64,000 bases of DNA from a virus (lineage: Duplodnaviria; Heunggongvirae; Uroviricota; Caudoviricetes). Below, piece after piece: positions 7,607-57,918 of this stretch. A program made the position numbers and the translations under genes. The stretch lies in IMG/VR virus record IMGVR_UViG_3300046689_000419, one strand, 5' to 3'. Positions within the stretch are counted from its first letter, which is position 1, and every line of letters begins with the position of its first letter. Below the pieces are notes generated by a model. It was not told where the DNA came from. It saw only the letters and a program-made list of their open reading frames with translations, and did not search any database.

Positions 7607-7631
7607 GTGACAGCGACGGGATGATGAAGAC

Positions 7632-9524: not shown

Positions 9525-9525
9525 G

Positions 9526-12500
9526 ATGCCCTACGCGAGCAAGGCACAGCGGGGCTACCTGCACGCCCACCCGGAGATCACCGACAAGAAGGGCCACCCG
9601 GTTGCGGCTAAGTGGGACGCCGAGATCCACGCCGCCAAGAAGCGGAAGGTCCGCAAGAACCGGAGCGATGGCTGGCTGAAGCCGGTGGTGGCCGGCACCC
9701 TGGCCGGTGGGCTGGCCAACCAGTTCCCGCGGGTCCAGGACGTGGAGCGGTCGCGGAAGAAGAAGAGGAAGGGCGTGGCCAAGCGGCTGGACGCCCCGAC
9801 CTGGCCGGACGACGGGTTCTTCAACGCCAAGGCGGCTCAGCAGGCCTACGACCTGGTGATGAAGATGGACCTGGACTCGGCTCAGATGTTCACCACGATG
9901 GTGGTCTCGAACGCGCTGGAGACCGACATCGAGGCCAACCGGCACACCCTGCAGAAGCACCTGGACGAGGTGATCGAGTACCGGCTGGCCGACCTGAAGC
10001 GGGCCACCATCCGGGTGGTGGGCAAGTCAGGAGCCTCGTCCGAGGGCGACTCGCAGGAGCAGATCGACTTCGCCACCGCGGTCGCCCGAGTGGAGGCGAT
10101 CTGCAAGTCCGGCCCGGTCAGCAAGGTCCTGACCCCGCAGGACTACGGCTGGGTGTTCCGGGAGGACCAGATCCGCCGGGACCCGGGCAGTGGGCAGTTC
10201 CAGACCAAGGTCAAGCACACCCAGAAGCAGCCGATCCAGGACAAGGTGGCCAGCTCGATGGGGATCGTGCCGCACCCGGTGGGGCAGGGTCCGGACAAGA
10301 AGAACCGGTTCACCACGGCGCAGAAGGCTCAGTACCAGGACGAGTACCGACAGCTGGCCAACTTCCTGGGCTCGGTGGCTCAGTCCACCCCGAACTCCGG
10401 GGACACCAAGATCGACCTGCACTTCGAGGACAAGAACGGCAACCAGTGGATCGAGCCGGCCCGCAGCACCCGGCCCGAGGCGATGATGCTGGACCCCCGG
10501 GACCGGACCCTGCGCGGGATCACCGCCGCTCCGAGCAGCCTGAACGTGGGCGGGATGGCCTTCGGGCTGGCTGGTGCGCTGGGTGGTGGGATGTCCCCGC
10601 AGCGGGTCGCCCAGGTCAACGCCGGCGCGGCGGAGATGCCGACGTTCGCGCAGTCCTGGACCCAGCGGTACAGCGACACCGACACCAACGCCCGGCTCTA
10701 CGGTCGGATGTCGGCCGGCGGGAAGTTCCTCGCCCAGGTCGCCCCGGCCGGCTCGAAGGCGAATCTGGCCGGGCACTTCGGCAACTTCGTGGGCGAGTAC
10801 GGGCCGCAGGCCGAGGCAGTGATCGGGCCGACCGCGCGCAAGACCGCCTACCGGTACCGGGGCACCGAGAAGACCCCGGACCCGACGATGGTGCGCGACT
10901 ACGAGGTCGCGGTGCGCAACGCGATGTCCCAGCGCGGCTTCGATGAGGACGCGACCAAGGCCACCAAGGTCGCCCAGAACCGGGCGGTCCGGGCCAAGAT
11001 CAACCAGGTCGCGGAGGAGACCAACACCCCGGTCGATGCGGTCAAGCTCACCAACGAGCAGCGGGTCGAGGCGCTGAACTCGGCGAAGAGGACCGTCGCG
11101 GCAGCCGGTGCCAGCACCAGTCCGACCTGGGAGGAGCAGAGCGTCGCGTCCTCGGCGATCATGAACTACCTGCGCGCGATCCCCGAGAAGGGCGGCACGG
11201 CTCCGAGGAAGGGCCTGTACAACCTGCAGCTGGCGGCCGGGAACACCCCGCCGTCCGAGGGCGTGATCCTGGACCGGGACGGCCGGATCGTCACCCAGGC
11301 GGTCGGCTACGGCGACGACCACTACCTGCCGTTCAACCTGAAGAACCTCAAGGGTCTGAAGGGCGGCTCCTACATCCGGAACCGCTCGGTGGGCGGGCTG
11401 ACCAGCGAGGACATCTACACCGGGCTGGTCACCGGGGCCCGGCGGGTCACCGTGGTCTCGAGGTCGGGCACCTTCACGATGGAGTTCGAGCCGGACTTCC
11501 GGGGTGGGCGTCGGCACAACGACAAGGCGAAGCGGATGACCCAGCGCTACGAGCAGCTGCTGGACGCCGTGCAGTCCGAGCAGGTGGAGCGTCAGGGCAT
11601 CGATCCGGAGATGCGCGAGGTGATCACCCAGAAGGTCAAGGCGCGGGCTGCGCAGTTCCCCAATGCCTTCACCGGGAGGGAGATCCGGGAGGAGATCAAG
11701 AGGAAGGAAGAGGAGTACAAGGCCAGCCCGGACCTCGATGACACGTTCGATGAGTACATCCACATGATCGTGAACAACCGGACCGTCGGTCTGAACGAAC
11801 CGGACCGCAAGGCGATCGAGGCCACGGTGCGGAACCAGCAGGCCAAGGAGAAGGAGTACAAGTTCCGGCTGAACGGGGCCGGCTATGCCGACGCCCTGGA
11901 GGGTCTGCGCGAGCAGTTCCCCTACTACATCAAGGTCAACTCGGTGCCGACCAAGGACCCGGAGCGGCATGAGACCGAGCGGGACCAGGGCTACGTGGAG
12001 CCTGGCCGGTTGCGGCCCACCGAGGCCACCGTCGGCCTGTTCGGGTCCCAGCGGGTGAACAGGTACTCCGGGAAGGGCAGCAAGATCTCCGCGGCCGAGG
12101 CGAACTACGCCAAGCCGTTCATCGCCGAGCGGCGGGCCGCGACTGCAGCTCCGGAGACCACCGAGACGACCGAGACGCCGGCGGCCACTCCGGCTGCCCC
12201 AGCCGACACTCCGGCTGCCGCAGGGGCCACCCCGGCGGCCACTTCGGCTCCGACCACGGTCGGCGAGGCCCTGGAGCAGGCCACCTACGAGGACAAGGCG
12301 ACCGAGCTGCAGCAGCAGATCCAGCTCCACCTCAACCTGAAGAACGACCCGGATGCGGTGAAGTGGCACGGTCTGGGCCCGGCAGAGTTCCGAGGGTTCC
12401 TGCAGAACAAGGACAACCTGGCCGACTTCGATCTCTACGTGACCCAGCGCGCGGCCGAGATGCTCGCCTTGAGGCCCCAGCTCCGCGAGCCGCTGAACGG

Positions 12501-18181: not shown

Positions 18182-18988
18182 ATGCCACGACGGAACAACC
18201 TGACCGACATGGAGATCGATGAGATCTCCACCGTGGACAAGACCGCGAACCAGCTCTCGAGGTTCGTCATCGCAAAGCGGGCTCCCGAGGAGGAAGACAT
18301 GCCCCAGCTCTACAACCAGGAGGGTAAGCCCCTCGATGAGAACGACCTCGAGTTCGGCGACATCGTGTTCGATGAGCAGGGCCAGGCGTACGAGTACGTC
18401 GAAGAGGGTGAGGAGCACGAAGAGCGTGAGGAGGAGGGCGAGCTAGTCGAGGCCGGCAAGTCGGCGTTCTTCCAGCCTCCGCAGAACTCCGGCAGCTTCT
18501 CCAAGCAGGTGATGGAGGAGCTCTCCAAGGCGTTCAGCGACGAGGACCGGGACCAGGTGTTCGCCAAGGCGCTCGGTCGGGTCGAGGAGCTCGAGAAGGC
18601 CCAGCAGGCCGCCGAGCGTATCGCCAAGTCCGAGCGGGACCTGCGGCTGACCCGGGAGTACGTGGCGAAGTCCGCCGAGTACAACCTGCCGGTGGACCCG
18701 AACGAGCTCGGCCCGGTGCTCTACCGGATGGCCGAGACGATGAGCTACGACGACTGCGCGGTGATCGCGAAGTGCCTGGAGTCGGCCGGCAACATCCTCT
18801 TCGAGGAGGTCGGCTACCAGGGTGGCGGCGACAACAACGACATCTACTCCCAGGTCGAGGCGCACGCCCACGACACGTTCGGCAAGGCCGAGGACTTCAA
18901 CGAGGTCTCGGCGATCAACAAGGTGTTCGACATGAACCCGGACGCATACGACGAGTACCTGGCCGCGCAGCGGCTCAACGGTCGATAG
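18182..18988 (+). CDS. Scaffolding protein (acidic, coiled-coil)
   Basis: 268 aa, acidic, helical, positioned upstream of the capsid gene. Confidence 0.55.
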   Translation: MPRRNNLTDMEIDEISTVDKTANQLSRFVIAKRAPEEEDMPQLYNQEGKPLDENDLEFGDIVFDEQGQAYEYVEEGEEHEEREEEGELVEAGKSAFFQPPQNSGSFSKQVMEELSKAFSDEDRDQVFAKALGRVEELEKAQQAAERIAKSERDLRLTREYVAKSAEYNLPVDPNELGPVLYRMAETMSYDDCAVIAKCLESAGNILFEEVGYQGGGDNNDIYSQVEAHAHDTFGKAEDFNEVSAINKVFDMNPDAYDEYLAAQRLNGR

Positions 18989-37296: not shown

Positions 37297-38880
37297 CTAG
37301 TCGCGGACCATGATCTCGCCGTCGTTCAGGTCCACCATGTGGTGCCGCATGACCTGCTCCATCACCGGCCGGAGAATCTCAGCCAGCGCGGTGTCCAGGG
37401 CCGGCTTAGTGGGCCGGTCGGTGGACACCTGGTGCGCCTCGATCTCGGTGCGCATGGCGTTCGCCGCCCGCAGGAAGTCCTCGGTGGCCAGTGGCTGGCC
37501 GAGCTTCCCGGTCCGGATGATGTTGTGCTTGACCACATCCTCCAGCGAACGAACGATGAACGCCGGCATCCACCCCTCGAAGGCGACATAGAGCTGGGAG
37601 TAGTCCAGCTCGACCCGCTGCGACTCCGGGATGTGGCTGTCGATCAACCGCTGGACCCCAGGCTGGTCGAGACCAGCAATGGTGATCGTGTGGTCGATCC
37701 GGTGCCCACCCTTCATCGACTTCGGGATCTCCTCGGGGTGGTTGGTGGTCATCAACAAGGTGACCGCGAAGCCCTTGTTCCGCAGCCCGTCGAACTCACC
37801 GAGCAGTGAGTCCATGGCGGCGGGGTTCTTGAACAGGTGCTCCACGTCCTCGATCACCATCACCGTGGGCTGCTCGAGCTGCTGGGTGAACCGCAGCGCC
37901 TGGACCAGCGGCTCGTTCCAGTTGACCTCCACGAAGTTGAAGCCGTTCTCCAGGCAGTACTGCCCGGCGATCGCGCAGGCGCAGGTCTTGCCGCCACCGT
38001 TGTCGCCGGACAACAGCACGTTGTTCGACAGCTTGATGTGGGTGCGCTCCACCTTCTGGACCGGCTCTCCACCGTGATGGCGGGTCTGCCCGGTGGGGGT
38101 GAGCTCGAAGACTGGGTTGCCTTCGGAGTCCACCACCGGGTAGCCGGCGTTGGCCTGCTTGATCAGCTCGTGCTTCTCGATCAGCCCGTAGATGTGCGCC
38201 TGCAGCTCCCACCAGTTCTCCTGGGAGTAGGCCACCGTGGTGCGGTCCACCGTGTACGGGTCGATGAACTCCGGCTGGGCGGTGACGTTGCGCATCGCCT
38301 TGCCAGCGTAGATCGAGTTCTCCTTCAGGTAGTCCTCGAGGAGGATGAAGAAGTTGGTGATGTCCGCCTCGTACTTCAGCTTCCCGTACGCGCTGACCTG
38401 GAAGGACAGCCCGTACTCCTGGTGCACCGACGCGCCCAGCTCGAACGTGGTCTCCCAGGGCTTGAAGTACATGTTGCCCCAGGGCACGTTGAAGGTCTCG
38501 CCGCGGTTGACCTCGACCGAGATCATCTGCGGCGGGGAGGCGAACCAACCCTGGGTCCGCCGCCCGAGCGGGGTGTCCCAGAGCTTCGTCAGCAGCTGGT
38601 TGAAGTTCCAGGCTCCATCCGGCGGGCGGCAGAAGAAGACCTTGGAGAACTCGTACATCTCCTGTTCGGCTTCCTTCTTCTCCCGGATGGTCTCCTCGGC
38701 GGTCTCCAGCTCCATGTCCACGGGCAACGCGATCTTCTTGCCACCGTCGTTGCGCCGCTCGATCTTCTCGGTCAGGGTGGATCGGTTCTTGCCGTGTTCG
38801 GCCAGAAGGTCACTGACGCGGCGGCGCTCCTCATCCGCTGCGTCGGTGCTCCACGGGTCGATCTTTTCCTGCTGAGCCAT
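37297..38880 (-). CDS. AAA+ ATPase with a ~250-aa N-terminal domain of unknown function
   Basis: Walker A 'GDNGGGKT', Walker B 'VMVIEDVEH', sensor 'TTNH'; 527 aa. Confidence 0.65.
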   Translation of the reverse strand: MAQQEKIDPWSTDAADEERRRVSDLLAEHGKNRSTLTEKIERRNDGGKKIALPVDMELETAEETIREKKEAEQEMYEFSKVFFCRPPDGAWNFNQLLTKLWDTPLGRRTQGWFASPPQMISVEVNRGETFNVPWGNMYFKPWETTFELGASVHQEYGLSFQVSAYGKLKYEADITNFFILLEDYLKENSIYAGKAMRNVTAQPEFIDPYTVDRTTVAYSQENWWELQAHIYGLIEKHELIKQANAGYPVVDSEGNPVFELTPTGQTRHHGGEPVQKVERTHIKLSNNVLLSGDNGGGKTCACAIAGQYCLENGFNFVEVNWNEPLVQALRFTQQLEQPTVMVIEDVEHLFKNPAAMDSLLGEFDGLRNKGFAVTLLMTTNHPEEIPKSMKGGHRIDHTITIAGLDQPGVQRLIDSHIPESQRVELDYSQLYVAFEGWMPAFIVRSLEDVVKHNIIRTGKLGQPLATEDFLRAANAMRTEIEAHQVSTDRPTKPALDTALAEILRPVMEQVMRHHMVDLNDGEIMVRD

Positions 38881-47832: not shown

Positions 47833-48330
47833 TCACTCCCGGTACCACTCTTCGCAGGCGGCCTTGGTGATCGACTCCGCGATCCGCCGGACGCTGGTCG
47901 CGGTGTTGCCACCGCTGAACAGCTGCTCGGCCCAGCCCGGGGTGATGCCCAGCTTGACCTGTGCCAGCATCGCCATCGACCAGAAGTTGCCGTCATCGGT
48001 CTGCACGATGGAGACGGTCTGGTTGGTGTCCTGGTCCATCACCTCGGTGCCGAACATCAGCGCCACGTTGCCGGCCACGCATCGGTAGGTGCCGCAGACC
48101 TGGTTCTGCTCGTCGTGCTTGGTCATCGCCCAGTCACCCTGGTACCACTCCCGCTCCGGGGCGCTCTGGACGTACTTGGTCTGCTCCTCGACCCACTCGA
48201 CCTGCTTCCAGAGCAGGCCCAGATCGAGGTCCTTGATCTCGACGTGCCCGGCGTAGCCGCCGATGCGGTCTCGGTTCTGCGCGATGGCCCGGTCGATCTC
48301 GTCCCGGGTCATCTTGATCGGCTCGTTCAT
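47833..48330 (-). CDS. Paralogue-family protein B1
   Basis: 165 aa; 'QVCGTYRCVAGNVAL' and 'AEQLFSGGNTATSVRRIAESI'. Confidence 0.5.
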   Translation of the reverse strand: MNEPIKMTRDEIDRAIAQNRDRIGGYAGHVEIKDLDLGLLWKQVEWVEEQTKYVQSAPEREWYQGDWAMTKHDEQNQVCGTYRCVAGNVALMFGTEVMDQDTNQTVSIVQTDDGNFWSMAMLAQVKLGITPGWAEQLFSGGNTATSVRRIAESITKAACEEWYRE

Positions 48331-48364
48331 CTGTTTCCCTTCTCTCCTGGTGAAGGGGGCCTGC

Positions 48365-48463
48365 TCATGGCAGCAGGCCCCCGGTGTACATGACCCAGCC
48401 CATCACCACGAAGTCGAGCGCGGTGGCGATGATCAGGATCGTCATCAGCATCTTGTAGAGCAT
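48365..48463 (-). CDS. Hydrophobic micro-protein (32 aa MLYKMLMTILIIATALDFVVMGWVMYTGGLLP)
   Basis: ATG 2 nt after the upstream stop. Confidence 0.25.
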   Translation of the reverse strand: MLYKMLMTILIIATALDFVVMGWVMYTGGLLP

Positions 48464-48465
48464 CC

Positions 48466-48969
48466 TCAGACCAGAGTCAGCTCGTACCCGTGGGCCTCGG
48501 CGATGTCCTGAGCGATCCACTGGATCCGGTTCGCGCTGTTGTCCGCTCGGAACAGCAGCTCGGCCTCGCCTGAGCTGAGCCCCATCACCTCCCGAGCCCG
48601 CTGGCCGATGGTGTGCAGGGTGTTCTGGTCATCGATGCACAGCTCGGTGTAGTAGGTGCCACTGAAGAGGTTGTCGGAACCGCAGTGGAGCACGTCGGTC
48701 GCGCGTACGCCCTCCTCGGACATCACCATCCGGTCCCCGTGCAGGATCACCGCCTGGCCGGCCACACAGCAGCCGGAGGTGCAGAGCACCTGGAACCGCT
48801 GGCTCGCTCCGACGAACTCGTTGAACGCCCTCACCACCTGGTGGGCCAGCCGGCCGTAGCCCCAGTTGCCCTGGGCGTGCCGCCGGCTGCTGGCCGACCG
48901 CTCGGGCCGGTGCTCGTCCATGACCCACTGGATCGTCTCCTGGAACAGGTCGAACTGCTTCTGATCCAT
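48466..48969 (-). CDS. Paralogue-family protein B2
   Basis: 167 aa; 'LCTSGCCVAGQAVIL' and 'AELLFRADNSANRIQWIAQDIAE'. Confidence 0.5.
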   Translation of the reverse strand: MDQKQFDLFQETIQWVMDEHRPERSASSRRHAQGNWGYGRLAHQVVRAFNEFVGASQRFQVLCTSGCCVAGQAVILHGDRMVMSEEGVRATDVLHCGSDNLFSGTYYTELCIDDQNTLHTIGQRAREVMGLSSGEAELLFRADNSANRIQWIAQDIAEAHGYELTLV

Positions 48970-48993
48970 GTCATTCCTTCCTGGTAGTTGTAT

Positions 48994-49254
48994 CTAGAGA
49001 GTGAACTCATCCACGGGGATGGGTCCCACGTAGTGCGTGCAGCCGCAGTAGCGGGTGCGCTTGGTGGACCCGTCGTACAGTTCCCAGTTGCACTTACCAA
49101 AGCCACCACCCATCTTGGCCATGTGGAAGGCCAGGTGGTGCTTGCACCCACAGGTCGCACTCTTCGACTTCTTTCCTCGGGCCATCTTCGTGCCCAGGTA
49201 GAACCCGGCCACCGGCAAGCCAGCCAGCCAGAACACCGTCAGCAGGTCAGCCAT
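48994..49254 (-). CDS. Membrane-anchored Cys/His-rich protein (family C paralogue)
   Basis: 'MADLLTVFWLAGLPVAGFYLG' TM helix; 'CGCKHHLAFH...CGCTHYVGPIP'. Confidence 0.5.
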   Translation of the reverse strand: MADLLTVFWLAGLPVAGFYLGTKMARGKKSKSATCGCKHHLAFHMAKMGGGFGKCNWELYDGSTKRTRYCGCTHYVGPIPVDEFTL

Positions 49255-49537
49255 CGCTGGTGGCCTTGCCGACCAGATCCTCGATCGCCGCGAACACCGC
49301 CGGCGGCAGGTGGTCGATGGCTGCATACACCAGCTCCGGGTCCCTGCTCGGGTCCAGGGTGACCACCGCGTGCATGCCGTCGCACTCCACGGTGATCTGG
49401 AAGCCGGCCTCCACCAGCGCGGGGTGCACCCGCATCGGGTGCACCTGCTTCTCCGGGTGCTCCTGCTGGTAGGCGGTCAGCGCCTCCTCGAGCTTGTCCT
49501 CGCTGATCACCTTGATCGGCTCACGCATCGACATCAC
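49247..49537 (-). CDS. Hypothetical protein
   Basis: 96 aa. Confidence 0.45.
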   Translation of the reverse strand: MMSMREPIKVISEDKLEEALTAYQQEHPEKQVHPMRVHPALVEAGFQITVECDGMHAVVTLDPSRDPELVYAAIDHLPPAVFAAIEDLVGKATSDG

Positions 49538-49889
49538 CGCCCCTCTCGAGTTTCTCCGCCTTCATCAGCAGGTCGGTGACCTCTTGCTGTGTCCTGCCCT
49601 CGCGGTCGTTCCAGCGGATAAACCCCGCCTGCGTGTAGGTCCGCAGGTGAGGCTCGGCGAGCTTCAGCAGATTGACCAGAATGCGTTCCACGCGCCAGCA
49701 GTACCGAGGGTCCTCGATCACCTTGTCCGCGGAGTTGTAGATCGCCCAGCCTTGGCTGTACAGCACGGCACCCAGACCACAGACGTTGCCGTGATCATTC
49801 CGCAGCATGTGCTGAGTCCAGCCGTGATCCTCGATGTACTCGCGGGTCCCTGCAAGGATGTCCGCGTCACTCTTCTGTTCCTCTTCCAT
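49521..49889 (-). CDS. Paralogue-family protein A1
   Basis: 'SDADILAGTREYIEDHGW...GNVCGLGAVLYSQGW...IRWNDREGRTQQEVTDLLMKAEKLERGG'. Confidence 0.55.
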   Translation of the reverse strand: MEEEQKSDADILAGTREYIEDHGWTQHMLRNDHGNVCGLGAVLYSQGWAIYNSADKVIEDPRYCWRVERILVNLLKLAEPHLRTYTQAGFIRWNDREGRTQQEVTDLLMKAEKLERGGDVDA

Positions 49890-49898
49890 GGCTTCCTC

Positions 49899-50255
49899 CT
49901 AGCCGTTGTAGGACTGGGTGGTGGCGCGGAACGCGCCGGCCCAGTGCCACTTGTTGTCCACCCACTGCTCGACCTGGGTGAAGGTCAGATCCACCTTGTC
50001 GTCCTGCTCCCACTCCAGCAGCAGCAGCGCGGAGTCGTACTCCTTCTCGAAGCTGATCGGCTTGGGCAGCTTGTGCAGGAAGTTCAGCCGCGGCTCCTTG
50101 TCCTTCTCCAACCGGGCCAGCTCCTTGGCGACCGCCTTACGGACCTTCTTCCGCCAGTTCTGCACGGCGAGCTTGTACTCCTCGACGTGCTTCTTCCGGT
50201 TCTGCTCCAGGGTTCGGATCAGATCCGTCTTGTTCACTTTGATGCTGTCCATCAT
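49899..50255 (-). CDS. Hypothetical basic protein
   Basis: 118 aa from MMDSIKV. Confidence 0.45.
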   Translation of the reverse strand: MMDSIKVNKTDLIRTLEQNRKKHVEEYKLAVQNWRKKVRKAVAKELARLEKDKEPRLNFLHKLPKPISFEKEYDSALLLLEWEQDDKVDLTFTQVEQWVDNKWHWAGAFRATTQSYNG

Positions 50256-50433
50256 TTCCCTTCGTGAAGGTGATGTAGGTGGGCACACCGCGCAGCATCT
50301 TGCTGGCGTCGAGTGCGTCCATGATTCGTTGGACAGGTTCGTCCCAGCGCCGGGAGAGCTCGCCCAGGGTGACCTGGGCGGGCTCCTCCAGCGCGTCTAC
50401 CATCTCGACCAGCCGCTCGAACGGTCTCCTCAT
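50137..50433 (-). CDS. Hypothetical protein (3' part overlaps 49899-50255 out of frame)
   Basis: The N-terminal ~58 aa are protein-like. Confidence 0.3.
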   Translation of the reverse strand: MRRPFERLVEMVDALEEPAQVTLGELSRRWDEPVQRIMDALDASKMLRGVPTYITFTKGNDGQHQSEQDGSDPNPGAEPEEARRGVQARRAELAEEGP

Positions 50434-50583
50434 GCGCCGCTCTTACCGGGCGGAATGACGCGGGTCCGGTACGGGTTCGGCGTCGGTTCGGGGTAGGTTG
50501 CCTGCACGGCGCGGGCGTCGGTATGGCCCGCGTCGTACCCGTCGTCCCATGCCTCCGCGAGTGCGTCTTTCTCGGCGGGGTGC

Positions 50584-50988
50584 TCACGCATCGGTGTCCC
50601 GGGCGGAGTGACGCGCGGTCTCGCCGTCGTTCCAGTAGTTCAGGCCGTCGAACGTGCCGTTCCCGAGGCGCATGGCGAAGACATCACTCGCCCAGATCAC
50701 CAGGCCGTAGCCCTCCATCGGTCCTCGGACGGCTGCGATGCCGCCGTAGATTCCTGAGAAGTCCAGCTCTGGGTTCGTCTCCAGCCTGGCGACTGAGACC
50801 GCCGCGAACTCCATGCACTCGTCCAGGGTCCTGGCGTCCTTCGTCCCGTTGATCAGGGTCAGGGCTGGCATGAGCCGTTCGACCTGCGCTCGGAGGTGGT
50901 CGTCCTTCAGTAGCGCGTCATGACGGCTGCGGAAGATTTCCAGCCTGGCCTTCGTCATCCCATCGGCATCACTCTCCGACATTGCCAC
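50584..50988 (-). CDS. Divergent member of paralogue family A
   Basis: 'SESDADGMTKARLEIF...ECMEFAAVSVA...LNYWNDGETARH'. Confidence 0.45.
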   Translation of the reverse strand: MAMSESDADGMTKARLEIFRSRHDALLKDDHLRAQVERLMPALTLINGTKDARTLDECMEFAAVSVARLETNPELDFSGIYGGIAAVRGPMEGYGLVIWASDVFAMRLGNGTFDGLNYWNDGETARHSARDTDA

Positions 50989-51184
50989 TCCTCTCTAGCT
51001 TCTCGGCCTTCATGAAGGCGTCCACCGAGGACTGCATGCCCTGGCTGAGGATAATCGCGCCCCTTGCGCAGACCGCGCCGTCGTCGTCCACCAGAACGTC
51101 CTGGCACCAGCCGTTCACTTCGATGTACTCGCGGGCCTCCGCGAGCACGTCGGCGGCAGACTTCTCAGTCACGAACATCGCCAC
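50969..51184 (-). CDS. Paralogue-family protein A2 (short form, 71 aa)
   Basis: 'KSAADVLAEAREYIEVNGW...GAVCARGAIILSQG...FMKAEKLERSGNV'; lacks the middle segment. Confidence 0.45.
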   Translation of the reverse strand: MAMFVTEKSAADVLAEAREYIEVNGWCQDVLVDDDGAVCARGAIILSQGMQSSVDAFMKAEKLERSGNVGE

Positions 51185-51497
51185 TCCTCTCGATCTTCTC
51201 CGCCTTCATGAACAGGTCGGTGACCTCCTCCTGGGTACGACCAACCTGGTCGTTCCAGAGGGTGATCGCACTACGAGGCTTCCAGCCAGTAGCGGCCAGG
51301 AGCTTCTGCTCGATCCGGTACTGCTGGGCGCGTTGCCCTATGACTAGCTCGTGGATATTCCAGCCCTGGCTGTAGATGACCGCGCCTGCCGCGCACACCT
51401 TGCCGGCGTGGTTGTGCAGGGCATGCTGGACCCAGCCGTGCTTCTCGATGTACTCCCGGGCCTCCGCAAGCACATCAGCGTCACTCTTCAACAACAT
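51165..51497 (-). CDS. Paralogue-family protein A3
   Basis: 'KSDADVLAEAREYIEKHGW...GKVCAAGAVIYSQGW...LWNDQVGRTQEEVTDLFMKAEKIERSG'. Confidence 0.55.
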   Translation of the reverse strand: MLLKSDADVLAEAREYIEKHGWVQHALHNHAGKVCAAGAVIYSQGWNIHELVIGQRAQQYRIEQKLLAATGWKPRSAITLWNDQVGRTQEEVTDLFMKAEKIERSGDVRD

Positions 51498-51873
51498 TCC
51501 CGCTCCTCTCCTGCTTCTCAGCCTTCATCAGCACGTCCAGGACCTGCTGCTTGTCGGCGTAGATGTCGTTCCAGTTGGTGACTCGACGGATCGGATCGCC
51601 CGGGAAAGACCGGCGGTAGACCACCTCGAGGATCTTCCGGGACAGCCGCGCCAGGTCGAAGAGGTGCGCATCCTCCACGCCCAGTCCGGTCACTCCGGTG
51701 TACTTCCAGCCTTGGCTGCAGATGATGGCTCCGACCATGCACACCGCCCCGTCGTCGCGCTGGATGTAGCTCGAGGTCCAGTCGTGCTCCTCGACGTACT
51801 CCTGGGCGTCACTGAAGATGTCCGCATCGGTCTTGATGTCGGCCTCAGACTTCGGCTCGTCCATCGACGGCAC
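51481..51873 (-). CDS. Paralogue-family protein A4
   Basis: 'AQEYVEEHDW...GAVCMVGAIICSQGW...NWNDIYADKQQVLDVLMKAEKQERSG'. Confidence 0.55.
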   Translation of the reverse strand: MPSMDEPKSEADIKTDADIFSDAQEYVEEHDWTSSYIQRDDGAVCMVGAIICSQGWKYTGVTGLGVEDAHLFDLARLSRKILEVVYRRSFPGDPIRRVTNWNDIYADKQQVLDVLMKAEKQERSGNVVEE

Positions 51874-52225
51874 CTCCCCGGGCGATCTTCTCGGCCTTCA
51901 TGAAGGCGTCGTAGACCTGCTCGTAATCCCGGTCACAGTCGTCGTTCCAGGCGGTCAGCCGGTTGAGGCCCACGCCCACCTTTCCGGGCAGGTTCTTCTT
52001 GCCAGCAGCCCGCAGGATGAGACCGCTGAGCCGCATGCAGTCATTGACGTGCTCGTGTTCCACGTCGTAGTTGTCCTCATCGACCCAGCCCTGGCTGTAG
52101 ATGATGCCGCCCAGGGCACAGACGTACCCGTCCTCGTTCCTCAGCACGTCCTTGGTCCAGCCGTGCCGATCGAAGTACTCCCTGGCCTCGGCCAGGATGT
52201 CCGCATCGGACTTCTGCTCGGTCAT
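51845..52225 (-). CDS. Paralogue-family protein A5
   Basis: Start MTEQKSD; 'SDADILAEAREYFDRHGW...GYVCALGGIIYSQGW...AWNDDCDRDYEQVYDAFMKAEKIARGG'. Confidence 0.55.
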   Translation of the reverse strand: MTEQKSDADILAEAREYFDRHGWTKDVLRNEDGYVCALGGIIYSQGWVDEDNYDVEHEHVNDCMRLSGLILRAAGKKNLPGKVGVGLNRLTAWNDDCDRDYEQVYDAFMKAEKIARGGAVDGRAEV

Positions 52226-52782
52226 AGCTTCAGCCCCCGGGACTCCGCGATCATGGCGGCCAGGGCCTTGATCGTGGTTGAGGAGTTGTCCCCGTGGAAC
52301 AACTTGAGCGCCTCGGTCTCGGTCAGCCCCAGCACGGCTTGGCCACCATCGGACCAGCTGAGGTGGCCCCACTCGGTGGCCGAGGGATCGACCAGGTTCC
52401 CGTCGTAGCCGACCAGGCTCGGGTCGGTGTACTCCTCGCGCAGCTGGTGGTTGGTCAGCTCATCTGCCGAGCTGACCCCGAACTCTCGGACGCACTGCTC
52501 AGCAGGGAGCTCACCGAGCAGCTCCCCGAGGGTCTTGACTCCACCTGTGGTGTACAGGGCGTAACCACACACGCAGTAGGCGCTGCCGCAGTAGTTCGAG
52601 GTCTGCAGGAACACCGACCAGGAGGCCTGGTTCCAGTGCGGCTCGTTGGGGAGGGGCGTGAAGGCGTGGGCCTGTCGGTCCACCCAGGCCACGCACTCCC
52701 GGAGCAGCTCGATGTTGAGCTTGGGGAGCTCGTCGTACCGGACGCCCACACCATCGCGGACACTGATGACATTGCTTTCCAT
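52222..52782 (-). CDS. Paralogue-family protein B3
   Basis: Start MESNVIS; 'NYCGSAYCVCGYALY' and 'ALKLFHGDNSSTTIKALAAMIAESRG'; bridges the A and B subfamilies. Confidence 0.5.
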   Translation of the reverse strand: MESNVISVRDGVGVRYDELPKLNIELLRECVAWVDRQAHAFTPLPNEPHWNQASWSVFLQTSNYCGSAYCVCGYALYTTGGVKTLGELLGELPAEQCVREFGVSSADELTNHQLREEYTDPSLVGYDGNLVDPSATEWGHLSWSDGGQAVLGLTETEALKLFHGDNSSTTIKALAAMIAESRGLKL

Positions 52783-52795
52783 GGTTCTGTTCTCC

Positions 52796-53698
52796 TTAGT
52801 TCCCCGGCGCTGTACCGGAGACGACGTATGTCGGTTGGAACGGGTTCTGGCCTTGCTGGATGGCTTCGTGGCGCAGGAAGTTCTCCGCACCGCCGTAGCC
52901 GTTGATCTCGGCCCGGGTCTTGGACGCCTCCGCCTGAGCGACGGCGATCTGGGCCCGAGCCTTCGCTGCATCCGCCTGCGCCTGAGCCTCCTGGGCCCGG
53001 GCCTCGGCAGAGGCACTGTTCGCCTTCGCGACCGCCGCCTGCTCGTCGGCGACGGCCTGCTTCAGCTGCTCGTTGGTCGGGTCGGGCTTCTGGATCAGCA
53101 CTGAGAAGTCCTGAAAGAAGTCCCCGCCGGCCTGTCGGGCCACCAGCGGACCGATGGAGGAGGAGACCTCCTTCTCCAGGGCCGCCTTGGTCACTGGGTC
53201 GTTCCACAGCTCGCGCCACTTGTCACCCTGCGCAGCACGGTCCAGCGCCTGGTCCAGCGGCTTGCCGATCACAAAGTTCAGCATCTTGATCCAACCGTCC
53301 GGGAACTCCGAGGACTTCGCCGAGCCATCGAAGGCCGCGTCGAAGCGAGAGCCGATGGACTCGTGGAACTTGCGCAGCGACTTGCAGTCGGTCTTCAACC
53401 GGAAGGTGACCGTGGTCGGCACCCGGAGCTCGGCGTTGTCCGCGGAGACCACCGTGAACGAGGCGGACTCCGCGTCCTGACCACCGGTGGCGTCGTAGCT
53501 GATCTGCCTGGTCGGGTAGCCGAAGTAGTTGTCCCCGGGGTGGAACCCGGTCCGAGTGGACGGGTCCACGCAGTCCACGAACTTCTTCGCGGAGAACTCG
53601 CCGCCGGCGTAGTGGACATCGACCATATCCGGACCGGTAGTCGCGGACGCACAGCCCGCCAGCAGCAACAGCGAGGCGAGCCCGATCAACCACCTCAC
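52796..53698 (-). CDS. Lipoprotein with C-terminal Ala/Gln/Glu-rich coiled coil
   Basis: GTG start; lipobox 'LLLAGC' in 'VRWLIGLASLLLLAGCASATTG'; 300 aa. Confidence 0.5.
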   Translation of the reverse strand: MRWLIGLASLLLLAGCASATTGPDMVDVHYAGGEFSAKKFVDCVDPSTRTGFHPGDNYFGYPTRQISYDATGGQDAESASFTVVSADNAELRVPTTVTFRLKTDCKSLRKFHESIGSRFDAAFDGSAKSSEFPDGWIKMLNFVIGKPLDQALDRAAQGDKWRELWNDPVTKAALEKEVSSSIGPLVARQAGGDFFQDFSVLIQKPDPTNEQLKQAVADEQAAVAKANSASAEARAQEAQAQADAAKARAQIAVAQAEASKTRAEINGYGGAENFLRHEAIQQGQNPFQPTYVVSGTAPGN

Positions 53699-54135
53699 GA
53701 GATCGCTGCCGGCTGGTCGCCGCCATGCACGGGGCAGGCCGGGTTGACCACGGACATCTCCGGGCTCTCCCAGACGCAGATGCAGGTCTTCTTGGCCTGC
53801 TTCTCCTCCGCCTTCGCCTCGGCCTTCTCGATCTGCGCCTTCTGCAGGGCCGTGTCGGCATCGGCGATCTGGTCGAGCAGCAGGTTCGCACCCAGGACAT
53901 CCTCGAACACCTGGATGTTGGTGACCAACCGCCGGACTCGGCTCCGAGCGAACACGAGGGCCTCGTCCGCCTCGGTGAGCGCCTTCAACGCCGCATCGAT
54001 GCAGTCCCGGCAGACCGGGTGGTCCTCGGGGATGTCCTCCCAGAGGACCTTGACCTTGAACTTCTTTCCGCAGAGCCCGAGTACTCGATCTCCGATCAGG
54101 TGCCTCGGGCGGTTGGTGATGTGTGCAGTTTTCAT
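53695..54135 (-). CDS. Cys-containing coiled-coil protein
   Basis: RBS GGAGAGGA; 146 aa with CxxC pairs. Confidence 0.45.
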   Translation of the reverse strand: MKTAHITNRPRHLIGDRVLGLCGKKFKVKVLWEDIPEDHPVCRDCIDAALKALTEADEALVFARSRVRRLVTNIQVFEDVLGANLLLDQIADADTALQKAQIEKAEAKAEEKQAKKTCICVWESPEMSVVNPACPVHGGDQPAAIS

Positions 54136-54407
54136 GGTGAGTCCTCTCCATTGGGAAACAGGTGGTGGTACCGCTCGTGCACCCACTCGCGGTGTCGCTG
54201 CTCGGCAGCAGCCTTGTGAGCCAGGCGCTTCTGGACCTGCTCGGGGGTCTCCGGCTCATCCCAGATCAGATGCCCGCCGGTGACGGTGACCTGGTTGGGG
54301 TCCAGGTCCTTCTCCAGGCAGAAGGCCAGCACCTGCTCGACGGACCAGCCCCGGTACATCGGCTCCATCCGGCGCAGCATCATCGGCTCGGTGCTCTGCT
54401 CACTCAT
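54132..54407 (-). CDS. Hypothetical protein
   Basis: 91 aa from MSEQSTEP. Confidence 0.45.
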   Translation of the reverse strand: MSEQSTEPMMLRRMEPMYRGWSVEQVLAFCLEKDLDPNQVTVTGGHLIWDEPETPEQVQKRLAHKAAAEQRHREWVHERYHHLFPNGEDSP

Positions 54408-54643
54408 TGGTTCTCCGTGTTGGTTCGGGACAGGCGGATCCTGTCGAGGATGATCTGGGACAGCTGGCTGTCGAGCATGTTGTACTCGATGGCCAGGGTG
54501 GACAGGTCGTCGCGCAGGTTGCGGAGCTCGGTGAGCTCCTTGCGTTCTCTCCTGTCCAAGTTGCTGGCGCGGATCCCCCTGGCGATCGCCACTGCCACGA
54601 TGGCGACGATCAGCACCGGGATGAACGCGATGATGACTTTCAT
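54404..54643 (-). CDS. Single-TM membrane protein with coiled coil
   Basis: 'MKVIIAFIPVLIVAIVAVAIARGI'. Confidence 0.5.
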   Translation of the reverse strand: MKVIIAFIPVLIVAIVAVAIARGIRASNLDRRERKELTELRNLRDDLSTLAIEYNMLDSQLSQIILDRIRLSRTNTENQ

Positions 54644-54876
54644 TCCTTCTCCTTGTCGTATTGGTGGATCTCATAGACCGAGTAGGCGCACACCTGGAAC
54701 GCCAGCCAGGCCAGGCACAGAGCAATGGCCCCGACGGGGGTCCCCCACAGGAAGTAGAGGACCCAACCGTCGAAGGCCAGGGCGAGGCTGTTGAAGACCA
54801 GGAAGAGCCACCAGATGTGGTCCTTGCCGACGAGCCAGTCGAAGAGCCTGGTCACCGGGTTCTGGCTATTGGCCAA
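54640..54876 (-). CDS. Two-TM membrane protein
   Basis: 78 aa, Trp-rich hydrophobic helices. Confidence 0.5.
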   Translation of the reverse strand: MANSQNPVTRLFDWLVGKDHIWWLFLVFNSLALAFDGWVLYFLWGTPVGAIALCLAWLAFQVCAYSVYEIHQYDKEKE

Positions 54877-55102
54877 TAACCTCGATCTCCTCCCGAGAGG
54901 TGAACTTCAGCAGCCGGACCGGCTTGCCCAGCTCGGCCGCGATCTTCTCGGCTATCGGCCGGAGCTTCTCGACCATGGCCATGTCGGCTCCCACCATCGG
55001 CAGCCAGCCCGACTCGCTGTAGAACCCGACCACGCCTTCGGTGTGGTCGTCGTCGGTGACCACGAAGGCGTACATCTGATCGATGTGCAGCTGGCCGTTC
55101 AC
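54866..55102 (-). CDS. Hypothetical protein
   Basis: GTG start with GTGA overlap and RBS GGAG; 78 aa. Confidence 0.4.
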   Translation of the reverse strand: MNGQLHIDQMYAFVVTDDDHTEGVVGFYSESGWLPMVGADMAMVEKLRPIAEKIAAELGKPVRLLKFTSREEIEVIGQ

Positions 55103-55569
55103 GAGCCGCTCCAGATCCCGAGCCGTGGCTGCCGGTCCCGGAACCGCTCCTCGAAGTCGTCGTCCCAGGGGAACCGGTCCTCGGTGTCCGGCCAGACCAG
55201 CTGCAGGCCGGACACCCGGCCGAACAGGTGCTGGCACATGCTCATCGGCAGCGCTCCGAGGGGCTCCAGGACCTCCAGAACCGCCACCCGCAGGCCTACC
55301 AGCACCTCGGTGGAGTAGGTGTCCGGCTCGAACCTGGTACCGCCTTGAATCGCCTGGTAGGCCGCGTTCAGCACTCCGTGCGATACCTCCGGGGTCATCC
55401 CGACCACGATCAGATCGGGGTGGTGGTGGTGCTCGCCCAGCCCGACCGTGTAGGTGAAGTAGTGCCCTGGGCTGGCCGTGGTGGGGAACACCGAGATCGC
55501 CGCCCAACCCTCCCGGGCGATGTCATCGAGGACCTTGCGGTCCACCTTGTCCCATCTGTCCTGCGTCAT
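55099..55569 (-). CDS. Hypothetical protein (His-rich 'EHHHHPDLIVVG'; possibly a DUF4262-type domain)
   Basis: RBS AGAGGAGAGGG; 156 aa. Confidence 0.45.
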   Translation of the reverse strand: MTQDRWDKVDRKVLDDIAREGWAAISVFPTTASPGHYFTYTVGLGEHHHHPDLIVVGMTPEVSHGVLNAAYQAIQGGTRFEPDTYSTEVLVGLRVAVLEVLEPLGALPMSMCQHLFGRVSGLQLVWPDTEDRFPWDDDFEERFRDRQPRLGIWSGS

Positions 55570-55579
55570 CCCTCTCCTC

Positions 55580-55885
55580 TCATGGCAACTCTCTGCAGGT
55601 GGCACAGGCTCCGAACATGAAGAAGACCTGTACCTCGCCGCGCATCCGCAGCACGTGCCCGGTCCAGAACGGCATCGGGTCCGGGCAGTACGCGCCACAG
55701 TTGTCGCAGGTGCGATCCCAGCGCTCGAACTCCTCGGGAGTCGCGTGCTCGCCCGGCTCGGAGACCGGGGTCATCACCAGCGGCACCCCCACGTCGGCGG
55801 TGCTTCCGAGGTGTGCCTCCATCAGCGCCAGCCGCTGATCGACCAGCGGGGTCAGCCAGGCCGGCTCGGGTACCGGCTCAGGCAT
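55580..55885 (-). CDS. Cys-rich small protein (CDNC...C...C...CATC)
   Basis: 101 aa. Confidence 0.45.
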   Translation of the reverse strand: MPEPVPEPAWLTPLVDQRLALMEAHLGSTADVGVPLVMTPVSEPGEHATPEEFERWDRTCDNCGAYCPDPMPFWTGHVLRMRGEVQVFFMFGACATCRELP

Positions 55886-56318
55886 CCGGAGCGACCCCGC
55901 GCATCCGCTTGGCGGTCTCGTGCAGCAGGTCCAGGGCGTTCTGCTCGGAGCCCCAGCCGTTGTCGTTCCAGCCCGGCAGGTCGCCCATCCCCCAGCGCTC
56001 GTCCCAGTCCTCCCGCTTCGCGCGCTGGTTCAGGGTGTCCAGCACCGCTGAGTAGACCGGGCAGGTCAGCAGCTTGCCCCGCTGATCGCTGTTCGCCTCC
56101 ATGTCGGCGGCGTCCAGGCCGATAGCCGCGGCCATCGCACCCTCGATGCAGTAACTCCACCGCTCGACCTCGCTGCCCTGCTCGTCGTACTCGTCCCAGG
56201 AGGAGAACCAGGCACCGGTGGTCCAGTGCCCCTCCAGCAGCTCTGCTGCGTCCTCGCATGCCTCGGCGATCTCTTCCTCGGTGCTGATCTCGTTCCATGC
56301 CTTCTTGTACATACTCAT
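55878..56318 (-). CDS. Distant member of paralogue family A
   Basis: 'WSYCIEGAMAAAIGL' and 'LPGWNDNGWGSEQNALDLLHETAKRMRG'. Confidence 0.45.
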   Translation of the reverse strand: MSMYKKAWNEISTEEEIAEACEDAAELLEGHWTTGAWFSSWDEYDEQGSEVERWSYCIEGAMAAAIGLDAADMEANSDQRGKLLTCPVYSAVLDTLNQRAKREDWDERWGMGDLPGWNDNGWGSEQNALDLLHETAKRMRGVAPDA

Positions 56319-56330
56319 TCCCTTCGTTGG

Positions 56331-56930
56331 TTACCAACTGCTCTGGTACCGGAGCACCAGCGGTTTCGGATAGGTGTTGATGACCTCGGCGAGCCGGTCC
56401 ACGGTGTGCTGCAGCTCGGCGATGTACCACTCGTCGTAGTCCACCGAGCCGAAGAAGAACCCGCCCTGGGTGGGCAGCAGCTTCGCGGCCAGCAGCGGGG
56501 TCTCGATCACCTGCTTGCACAGGTCCACCAGCTCGGCCAGCACCTCACCGTGGATCGGCTCGGTGAGCCGGCAGTCGTCCTCGCCGTCCTGGACGGTCCG
56601 TACGAACCACTCGTGGATCGCGTTGGCCTTGCGCCAGTACACCGCGCAGGGCCGGACCAGGTAGTCCTTGGTCTCGGGCTCCAGCTCGACGTAGAAGTGC
56701 GGCGAGTCGAGGTCCGGAGCCATCCCGGTCAGGGCGACCAGGGTGGCGTAGGCCGGGTCCGGCGGCACCGTCTCGAAGTCCCAGCCGGAGACGTAGGTGG
56801 AGTGCTGGTAGATCTCCTCGTTGGCGAGCTCCTCGAGGTGGTGACCCTCCAGGGCCTTGGTGATCGCCTGGTGCTGCTCGGTGTCCGCCGCCACCCGGTG
56901 CTCGGCGGTCAGGTACATGTCTAATCCCAT
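56331..56930 (-). CDS. Hypothetical protein
   Basis: 199 aa. Confidence 0.5.
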   Translation of the reverse strand: MGLDMYLTAEHRVAADTEQHQAITKALEGHHLEELANEEIYQHSTYVSGWDFETVPPDPAYATLVALTGMAPDLDSPHFYVELEPETKDYLVRPCAVYWRKANAIHEWFVRTVQDGEDDCRLTEPIHGEVLAELVDLCKQVIETPLLAAKLLPTQGGFFFGSVDYDEWYIAELQHTVDRLAEVINTYPKPLVLRYQSSW

Positions 56931-57586
56931 CAGGACTCCTGTGGGCCGTGCAGGGCATGGGCGAGTACCTGGAGCGGACTGAACTCACCGCCCTCGATGA
57001 AGGTGATCACCGACTCCTCGTCGTCCTCGTCGGGGAAGGCGTCGCGGTAGTGCTGGCCGTACTTGATCAGGCAGGCCAGGTCCCGGCCCTCCTCGGTGCC
57101 CTCGGCTGGAGTGGGCAGCTCGGAGACCAGGCCGTTCAAGATGGCGTAGGCCCCGAAGTTGCTGCCCAGGTCCTCGTCGGCGTAGAGCACCTGGAGCATC
57201 TGGTCCGGGAACCTCTCGGAGAGCGCGCTGATCACCGGGTACGGGTGTGCCCAGGCGGTGTCGAAGCGGACCACGGTGTCGTGCTCGGAGACCTCGGTCT
57301 CGTAGGCGTTCCACTTGGTGCCCCAGTTCTGGATCGACCAGTCGTACCAGTCGATCGCTCCCTCGGGGTACGGGATCGGGTCACCCTTCATCCCGGCCGG
57401 GTCGTCCTCGGTCGGGGCCCAGTAGACCTTCTTCATTTCGCCGTCGATCTTGGCGTGCCCGATGCTGCCGGTGATCACGTCATCGGGCATCGGGATGATG
57501 CGGTTAAAGTCCACCCCTGCCTCGGTGAGCAAGGCATCGATCGCCTCGCGCGGTCCGCGCAGGATGGTGGTTATGTGGTTGGGCAT
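56930..57586 (-). CDS. Hypothetical protein (motifs 'IIPMPDD' and 'NWGTKWNAYE', reminiscent of DUF1281-type phage proteins)
   Basis: RBS GGAAGGA 7 nt before the ATG (MPNHITT). Confidence 0.45.
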   Translation of the reverse strand: MPNHITTILRGPREAIDALLTEAGVDFNRIIPMPDDVITGSIGHAKIDGEMKKVYWAPTEDDPAGMKGDPIPYPEGAIDWYDWSIQNWGTKWNAYETEVSEHDTVVRFDTAWAHPYPVISALSERFPDQMLQVLYADEDLGSNFGAYAILNGLVSELPTPAEGTEEGRDLACLIKYGQHYRDAFPDEDDEESVITFIEGGEFSPLQVLAHALHGPQES

Positions 57587-57622
57587 TACAAGTCCTTCCA
57601 TGGGTTGTCCGGACATGGAAAA

Positions 57623-57664
57623 GCCCGGTGCCGAAGAGAGTAAGTACTCCCTCCGACACCGGGC
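57623..57664 (-). terminator. Weak terminator-like hairpin followed by TTTTCCATGTCCGG
   Basis: 8-bp stem gcccggtg/caccgggc with a long loop; same downstream motif as the 40.7 and 47.1 kb hairpins. Confidence 0.3.
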
Positions 57665-57918
57665 ATGGCCCCTGGATTCTGGCGTGCAGAACTCAGGTGC
57701 TGCAAACACACTATCACAACGTGGTCTATACGCACAAGGGCCAGAACGAGATTCGTCCTGGCCTGTTCTGGGGTGTCAGCGCGGCACTGTGTCTACGCGA
57801 CGGGCCGACTGATTGACCCCGGAGGCGAGGTGTGAGCCCCGCCAGAGACCGCCGGCCCAAGCGGGCCCTGCGATCTCATGCAGACAACATTAGCCTATAC
57901 ACCACAGCAGGTCAAGCC

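Follow-up and report, generated by a model that had tools for sequence, protein, structure and literature searches.

What are the ten small genes that lie on the minus strand between positions 47833 and 56318 of the Caudoviricetes record IMGVR_UViG_3300046689_000419, do they belong to a single family, and what might their products do for the phage? The 64,000 nucleotides analysed here, referred to as the window, are part of an 81,310-bp metagenomic contig of an uncultured phage with a genome of about 81 kb and about 65% GC. An initial annotation of this DNA regarded the ten genes as one superfamily of diversified paralogues that could not be placed in any known family. A superfamily of ten is not demonstrable. 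Instead, the locus contains six genes of Pfam family DUF6197 and three genes of phrog_889, named here family A and family B, and the tenth gene is excluded. The array proteins are new members of catalogued but uncharacterised families, and the identity and architecture of the locus can be regarded as nearly certain.

Two catalogued families in the array

All ten open reading frames (ORFs) are present on the minus strand at the positions assigned by the initial annotation, and their GC content at third codon positions (0.75-0.95) shows the bias of real genes in this window, which has 63-70% GC. The Pfam model of DUF6197 (PF19698) has a curated gathering cut-off of 24.6 bits, applied to the whole-protein score. 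Six of the genes exceed it with 43.9-67.5 bits (E 3e-11 to 1.5e-18) and were matched by phrog_762 too, so that A1 to A5 and an outlier at 55.9 kb are, judged by sequence, clear members of DUF6197/phrog_762. The highest score was obtained for A3 (51165-51497; 110 aa; 67.5 bits, E 1.5e-18). A1 (49521-49889; 122 aa) reached 61.3 bits (E 1.3e-16), and its AlphaFold model has a mean pLDDT of 93.6. Lower scores were found for A5 (51845-52225; 126 aa; 54.2 bits), A4 (51481-51873; 127-130 aa; 48.2 bits) and the outlier (55878-56318; 144-146 aa; 44.4 bits), which has a net charge of about -19. A2 (50969-51184; 69-71 aa; 43.9 bits) is internally deleted and covers only positions 3-51 of the profile; a 69-aa A2 product is on record (P0016). 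The tryptophan after helix 1, the Cys-x-x-Gly at helix 2 and the Trp-Asn-Asp (WND) motif are found together in A1, A3, A4, A5 and the outlier. A2 retains the tryptophan and the Cys-x-x-Gly and has lost the WND through its deletion. The N-terminal helix EAREYIExHGW, which had been ascribed to all ten proteins, was recovered in the A genes and not in the others. Neither B1-B3 nor the gene 50584-50988 matched PF19698 at E<=1, and no further members of either family were found among the 809 ORFs of the window with the A and B profile hidden Markov models (HMMs).

The remaining three genes are assigned to phrog_889 by their profile matches. B1 (47833-48330; 165 aa) matches phrog_889 with E 1e-11 and the B-profile HMM, which was built from 70-182 members, with E 6e-38. 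It carries the motifs VEWVEEQ, W-Q-G-D-W, CGTYRCVAG and LFSGGN, and its AlphaFold model (mean pLDDT 79.2) has an extra N-terminal helix. B2 (48466-48969; 167 aa; phrog_889 E 9.6e-14, B-profile E 4.6e-39) shows the variant motifs CTSGCCVAG and LFRADN, and B3 (52222-52782; 186 aa; phrog_889 E 8.8e-9, B-profile E 3.5e-27) the motifs CGSAYCVCG and LFHGDN. B3 is the first gene of a contiguous B-A-A-A-A run. The core motifs of the family are PLLRKxVEWVE, W-x-Q-x-x-W, CGTAxCVAG, LGL, LFxGxN and DIRRIAExIAGE. No Pfam or NCBIfam model matched family B. In an exhaustive profile search, the family comprised 4,596 representative clusters (50% identity) at E<=1e-3 and 1,191 at E<=1e-10, and the names of the clusters of the family representatives were uninformative. 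One member is gp93 of Mycobacterium phage Henry (UniProt G1D2E5; locus L005, JF937096 26967-27410), which matches the B-profile with E 2e-15 and is the top Foldseek match of the B1 model in BFVD. A tblastn search with B1 found nothing, and family B used as bait over the genome collection retrieved only three bacterial loci, in Aeromicrobium, Micromonospora and Nocardia.

The tenth gene, 50584-50988 (134 aa), had been described as a divergent A member. It matched no Pfam or PHROG family, and the A-profile HMM gave it E-values of 1.5-3.2 among the window ORFs. As a single sequence compared with A, it scored 17.2 against 11.4 +/- 1.9 for shuffles (z about 3). An orthologue is located at 18223-18903 of the viral contigs L011/L013, with 38% identity (E 8e-18) and the common core GGIxxxRGPMEGYG. 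The orthologue contains neither the N-terminal SDAD nor the WND, and 50584-50988 itself has only a YWND. When both sequences were combined into a profile and compared with family A using hhalign, P was 0.048. The gene was rejected as a degenerate A copy on account of this P-value and of the missing A motifs in its orthologue, and because its membership is unsupported the array has nine members and not ten. Together with the downstream gene 49899-50288 (phrog_34511) it forms a conserved pair that also occurs at 17487-18903 of L011/L013. This pair (49899-50988) is a separate small family that sits inside the A array of the window.

The proteins of both families are small, mostly acidic and cytoplasmic-looking; eight of the nine are acidic, with a pI of 4.2-5.3 and a net charge down to -19. 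Among 81 sequences of family A, W24, C37, G40 and W93-N94-D95 are conserved in at least 93%, and residues ~47-92 are hypervariable in sequence and length. In family B, a Trp, a Gln, a second Trp, two Cys, a Gly, a Phe and an Asn are conserved in at least 90% of 182 sequences around a variable middle, and the two cysteines form a conserved C-x4-C pair. Outside the invariant residues, the sequences of A and B diverge to about 20-25% identity. In the predicted models, the conserved helical scaffold consists of helix 1, a loop with the invariant Trp, helix 2 with the invariant Cys-x-x-Gly at its N-terminal end, and two C-terminal helices that carry WND (A) or LFxGxN (B). The segment of the beta-hairpin and helix 3 is hypervariable in sequence and length.

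Relationship between families A and B

The claim of the initial annotation that A and B form one superfamily is weakly supported by profile comparisons with hhalign. B3 had been said to align to A5 across all three conserved blocks. In BLASTP, this pair gave an E-value of 5.9, so that pairwise similarity is nil, and hardly any family member outside the window reaches a significant E-value with the HMM of the other family. Both results weigh against a common origin and suit the alternative that DUF6197 and phrog_889 are unrelated and merely co-inherited neighbours, whose shared motifs would have arisen in small helical proteins by convergence or by chance. The same can be said of the first hhalign run with enriched profiles (31 A and 70 B sequences), in which the probability was 11% over only 21 columns (score 22.8, P 2.7e-3), and of the Foldseek lists of the A and B models in BFVD, which have only three weak targets in common. 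However, the score rose with the richness of the profiles. Alignments of the window sequences alone gave P 0.018, and profiles of 81 A and 182 B sequences gave a score of 26.7 (P 4.3e-4) with a probability of 34-51%, including the run with secondary structure. Column shuffles reached the observed score in 1 of 150 cases for the smaller pair and in none of 120 for the larger pair (mean 10.6), and shuffles of the latter in blocks of eight columns did not reach it in 120 cases either (mean 13.3, maximum 22.7), so that the final score lies above all 240 shuffles. Reversed profiles of the larger pair scored 18.4-18.8, only about 8 score units below the observed value, which is a point in favour of unrelated families.

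The order of the predicted structural elements speaks for homology. When the DSSP strings of the AlphaFold models were added to hhalign, the probability was 50.7% with a secondary structure score of +4.4, and the alignment became full-length and in register, in the order helix 1, Trp, Cys-x-x-Gly/helix 2, hairpin, helix, WND in A or LFxGxN in B, and last helix. The A1 model consists of the elements H8-22, H38-46, E49-51, E57-59, H61-78, H87-94 and H101-115. The B1 model has, after its extra N-terminal helix, the elements H37-56, H85-92, E108-110, E116-118, H119-127, H131-137 and H144-164. In these predicted models, the order of the elements is identical and the invariant Cys lies directly before helix 2, which the Cys-x-x-Gly opens in both. 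In addition, the best sub-threshold matches of each family's HMM in the window are members of the other family: A3 is the best cross-family match to the B profile (E 0.0014-0.0075 among the 809 ORFs), and the A profile ranks B1 highest among its non-members. Taken together, we lean towards the view that A and B share one fold through very remote homology, and two unrelated families remain a serious, though not the favoured, explanation.

Age, overlap and recurrence of the array

The paralogues diverged long ago. Within A1-A5, identity is 39-60% for amino acids and 56-70% for nucleotides, with a proportion of synonymous differences (pS) of 0.43-0.68 and synonymous sites near saturation, and B1-B3 share 22-32% amino-acid identity. 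Each B copy and the outlier are nearer to proteins in other contigs (37-62% identity) than to the paralogues in the window; for the outlier, orthologues with 62% identity exist in other contigs (P0019, P0020). Old divergence and closer relatives elsewhere indicate that the array is an assemblage of long-diverged lineages and not the product of a recent burst. The pS values thereby bear out the earlier proposal of protein-level selection rather than recent duplication. The description of A2 as an internally deleted mini-version was likewise confirmed by the alignment, in which helix 1, the Trp, the Cys helix and the C-terminal helix are kept and the hairpin, helix 3 and the WND region are lost.

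The overlaps of 17-29 nt reported between successive A genes hold true when the first possible start is used, and are 14-20 nt with ATGs at proper Shine-Dalgarno spacing. Counted from the first possible starts, A5 and A4 overlap by 29 nt, A4 and A3 by 17 nt, A3 and A2 by 20 nt and A2 and the next gene by 20 nt; B3 and A5 overlap by 4 nt (ATGA), where the start codon of A5 runs into the stop codon of B3. For A2, A4 and 50584-50988, translation probably begins two to three codons further on, at the ATGs at 51178, 51864 and 50982, respectively. From the overlaps, we infer translational coupling and co-expression of the genes. Five gene boundaries on the minus strand (49526-49588, 50974-51036, 51170-51232, 51489-51551 and 51862-51924) share a 63-nt tail unit (repeat family D2, 60-81% identity), which encodes ...MKAEKxER(S/G)G and supplies the following gene with its GAGAGGAG Shine-Dalgarno site and start codon. 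Since the Shine-Dalgarno site lies inside the sequence for the KAEKxER(S/G)G tail, the conservation of this C-terminus is in part under a dual constraint from the protein and from translation initiation.

To place the array in a wider context, fetched sequences of other loci were scanned with the A and B HMMs. Mixed tandem arrays of A and B, usually in the order A-A-A-B, were found in a Nocardia prophage and in six or more other, independent viral contigs. This order is present in the viral contig L002 (which is the same as L010), in the 81-kb viral contig L008 and, with abutting genes, in the viral contigs L011, L012 and L013; the viral contig L009 has A-A-A-B-B and the viral contig L024 an abutting A-B pair. 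In the viral contig L022, two B genes are followed by four A genes 6 kb downstream. The Nocardia chromosome (L027) carries two B genes and then four to five A genes, in a region recognised as a prophage by a Phage_gene29 protein, an LGFP-amidase lysin and a PD-(D/E)XK nuclease. Arrays of a single family were found in Micromonospora (L026, two B) and in Rhodococcus phage Jflix2 (L003, three A), and the syntenic 80.8-kb contig L001 has one A within the 18.8 kb fetched. Among the syntenic relatives, the copy number thus ranges from one (L001) over four to five up to the nine of the window, the largest case seen. Because A and B recur side by side across these loci, their association is a conserved genetic module. 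The recurrent A/B array, its range of copy numbers and the possible link between the A and B folds appear to be undescribed so far.

The window phage has its relatives among the phages and prophages of Actinomycetota. No close relative of the contig was found in a set of about 50,000 sequenced phages, nor was near-identical DNA found in sequenced phages, and its terminase is without a close cultured relative. A tblastn search with A3 retrieved only 8 records from Gordonia and Rhodococcus, every one annotated as hypothetical. The families DUF6197 and phrog_889 themselves occur commonly in phages whose hosts are Mycobacterium, Gordonia, Rhodococcus, Streptomyces and their relatives. In Gordonia phages of cluster A15, a DUF6197 copy is located beside DNA polymerase I, and a second copy or fused two-domain versions occur (PMC10586128).

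The outlier has conserved neighbours on the same strand, namely a zinc-finger-like gene (55580-55885) and a DUF4262 gene (55099-55698), both identified by Pfam matches (55099-55885 in total). One or both of these also adjoin DUF6197 in L001, L002, L006, L008, L009 and L011. The outlier type of DUF6197 with its neighbours is found at 55099-56318 of the window and at 10001-10954 (L001), 8990-9755 (L002), 6958-7937 (L008) and 6709-7768 (L009). The arrays of L002, L008 and L009 begin with the orthologue of the outlier, which again lies beside the zinc-finger-like gene. In the window, about 3 kb of DNA lie between the outlier and the other array genes and code for an SPFH/Band_7 protein, a DUF3039-like protein and small membrane proteins.

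The contig as a whole is organised into a terminase, a long rightward structural block and a leftward block from about 57.6 kb to 36 kb, and a rightward module of DnaB, primase and Pol III alpha begins near 60 kb. Two terminator-like hairpins, both consensus matches only, were located on the minus strand: a strong one at 57664-57623, with a 19-bp stem and a T-run, and a weaker one at 47156-47141. They bracket the leftward unit with all ten genes and may represent its limits. The strong hairpin lies just upstream of the Api92-like/DUF1281_C gene. At 52796-53680, 54404-54876 and 56930-57709, the leftward operon holds genes for an SPFH/Band_7 protein, two small putative membrane proteins and the DUF1281_C protein (Api92-like, ferredoxin-like), and an AAA ATPase is encoded further down (37297-38880). 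Between A1 and B2, an ORF of 110 aa (48994-49326) combines a hydrophobic segment with the Cys-rich motifs CGCKHH, CNWE and CGCTHY. Over 25 nt, this ORF shares 80% identity with the region of the Cys motif of B3 (repeat D9), which may be due to chance. The N-terminus of B1 (MNEPIKM...) resembles that of an unrelated 96-aa ORF at 49247-49537 (MREPIKV...), with 76% identity at the DNA level over 33 nt (48299-48331 and 49497-49529). A recombination scar, or a translation-initiation region common to both, may explain this likeness. Both in the window (50430-50591) and in L002 (9748-9993 and 10972-11361), the arrays are interspersed with small ORFs that end in a common ...RVIPPGK/S.

Possible functions and comparison with known systems

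The most likely role of the gene products, a weakly supported best guess to which we give a probability of roughly 0.35, is that of diversified binder proteins for host takeover or counter-defence. According to this proposal, the array proteins would be made in the non-structural, probably early, programme of the phage. The constant scaffold and pocket would give them an activity or partner in common, each paralogue would owe its target specificity to the variable insert, and the resulting role would be host takeover or counter-defence. The accessory behaviour of the genes, the acidity of the proteins, the variable insert and the reiteration speak for such binders, and the copy number of one to nine among related phages fits an accessory locus in an arms race. 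Several points weigh against it. The near-invariant Cys, Trp and Asn-Asp over hundreds of sequences would better suit a ligand-binding or catalytic site, the paralogues are ancient and do not directly attest to a rapid turnover in an arms race, the position of the genes is the sole reason for assuming early expression, and a link to any host target or defence system was not found. Moreover, A and B may be unrelated families that travel together, as the pairwise and cross-family comparisons described above would allow.

The conserved residues lead to a different explanation, in which the proteins are small enzymes or binders of small molecules or nucleotides ("sponges") that act through the invariant Cys before helix 2, combined with the invariant Trp and Asn/Asp in A or with the second Cys, Gln and Asn in B, with paralogues differing in substrate or ligand. 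A cysteine at the N-terminus of a helix is the classic position of reactive thiols, and the invariant Cys is predicted at precisely this position of helix 2. The near-invariance of polar and aromatic residues in 81 A and 182 B sequences, in spite of only about 20-25% identity, and the C-x4-C pair of family B point in the same direction. However, an invariant His or another catalytic partner is missing, and we consider this explanation unlikely, albeit one to be kept in mind. Rather less probable still is an accessory function in the replication or recombination of phage DNA, or one as regulators that bind nucleic acids, in which case the paralogues might form homo- or hetero-oligomers. The genomic neighbourhood and the fused versions are in line with such a function, and the acidic charge of the proteins argues against it. 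A bolder extension of the binder proposal is that DUF6197 and phrog_889 constitute one widespread actinophage superfamily of modular inhibitors, with a helical scaffold carrying a Cys/Trp/Asn pocket and a hypervariable insert of hairpin and helix. The arrays would then be counter-defence islands built from a single fold, each paralogue acting against a different defence or host factor. We regard this as speculative and improbable as a whole.

More specific candidates were rejected. The CG[ST]xxC at a helix N-terminus had suggested a papain-like or NlpC/P60 cysteine peptidase. A papain-like Cys-His peptidase was discarded because no invariant His exists in A or B; in addition, such peptidases carry the His on a beta-strand domain, helices predominate in the A1 and B1 models next to a single hairpin, and no Pfam peptidase family was matched. 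The name recombination directionality factor (RDF), which Henry gp93 (G1D2E5) bears in UniProt and BFVD, is stale: the current GenBank entry is a hypothetical protein, and Henry has a tyrosine integrase. An RDF of serine integrases, of the phiC31 gp3 type, was dismissed as well, as gp3 and the whole phiC31 genome do not match the A and B profiles (best E 0.46 and 1.3). No relatives of A or B were found by sequence in the PDB, and PADLOC-DB, whose models represent defence and not anti-defence systems, gave only two matches at noise level (E 0.009 and 0.023). The literature search on DUF6197/PF19698 and on tandem paralogues of actinobacteriophages yielded one genome announcement, in which no function is assigned (PMC10586128).

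Whichever function applies, the analysis turns two anonymous domains of unknown function (DUFs) into one defined, testable genetic module, which offers the Cys, the WND and the LFxGxN as mutational targets. If a role in host takeover or counter-defence is true, the module would offer a large untapped family to the biology of actinobacterial phages and to the engineering of mycobacteriophages for therapy. For a mundane accessory of DNA metabolism, the value would mainly be better annotation.

Compared with known systems, the closest counterpart is DUF6197/phrog_762 itself. A1-A5 and the outlier lie well over the gathering threshold and, except for A2 without the WND, possess the invariant W, C-x-x-G and WND of the family. 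They differ in that six copies per genome, one of them internally deleted, and the interleaving with a second family are undescribed, the only paper found reporting Gordonia A15 phages with two copies or with a fused pair of domains (PMC10586128). For B1-B3, the counterpart is phrog_889, the family that includes Henry gp93. Cas11/Cmr5 small subunits and the anticodon-binding domain of GluRS are structural neighbours only. As a genetic arrangement, the array resembles accessory or anti-defence clusters of variable copy number, such as anti-CRISPR loci, in that small acidic non-structural genes are gathered in a non-structural operon and vary in content and copy number. Known anti-defence loci usually mix unrelated families, whereas the array in the window reiterates one or two folds with near-invariant putative functional residues.

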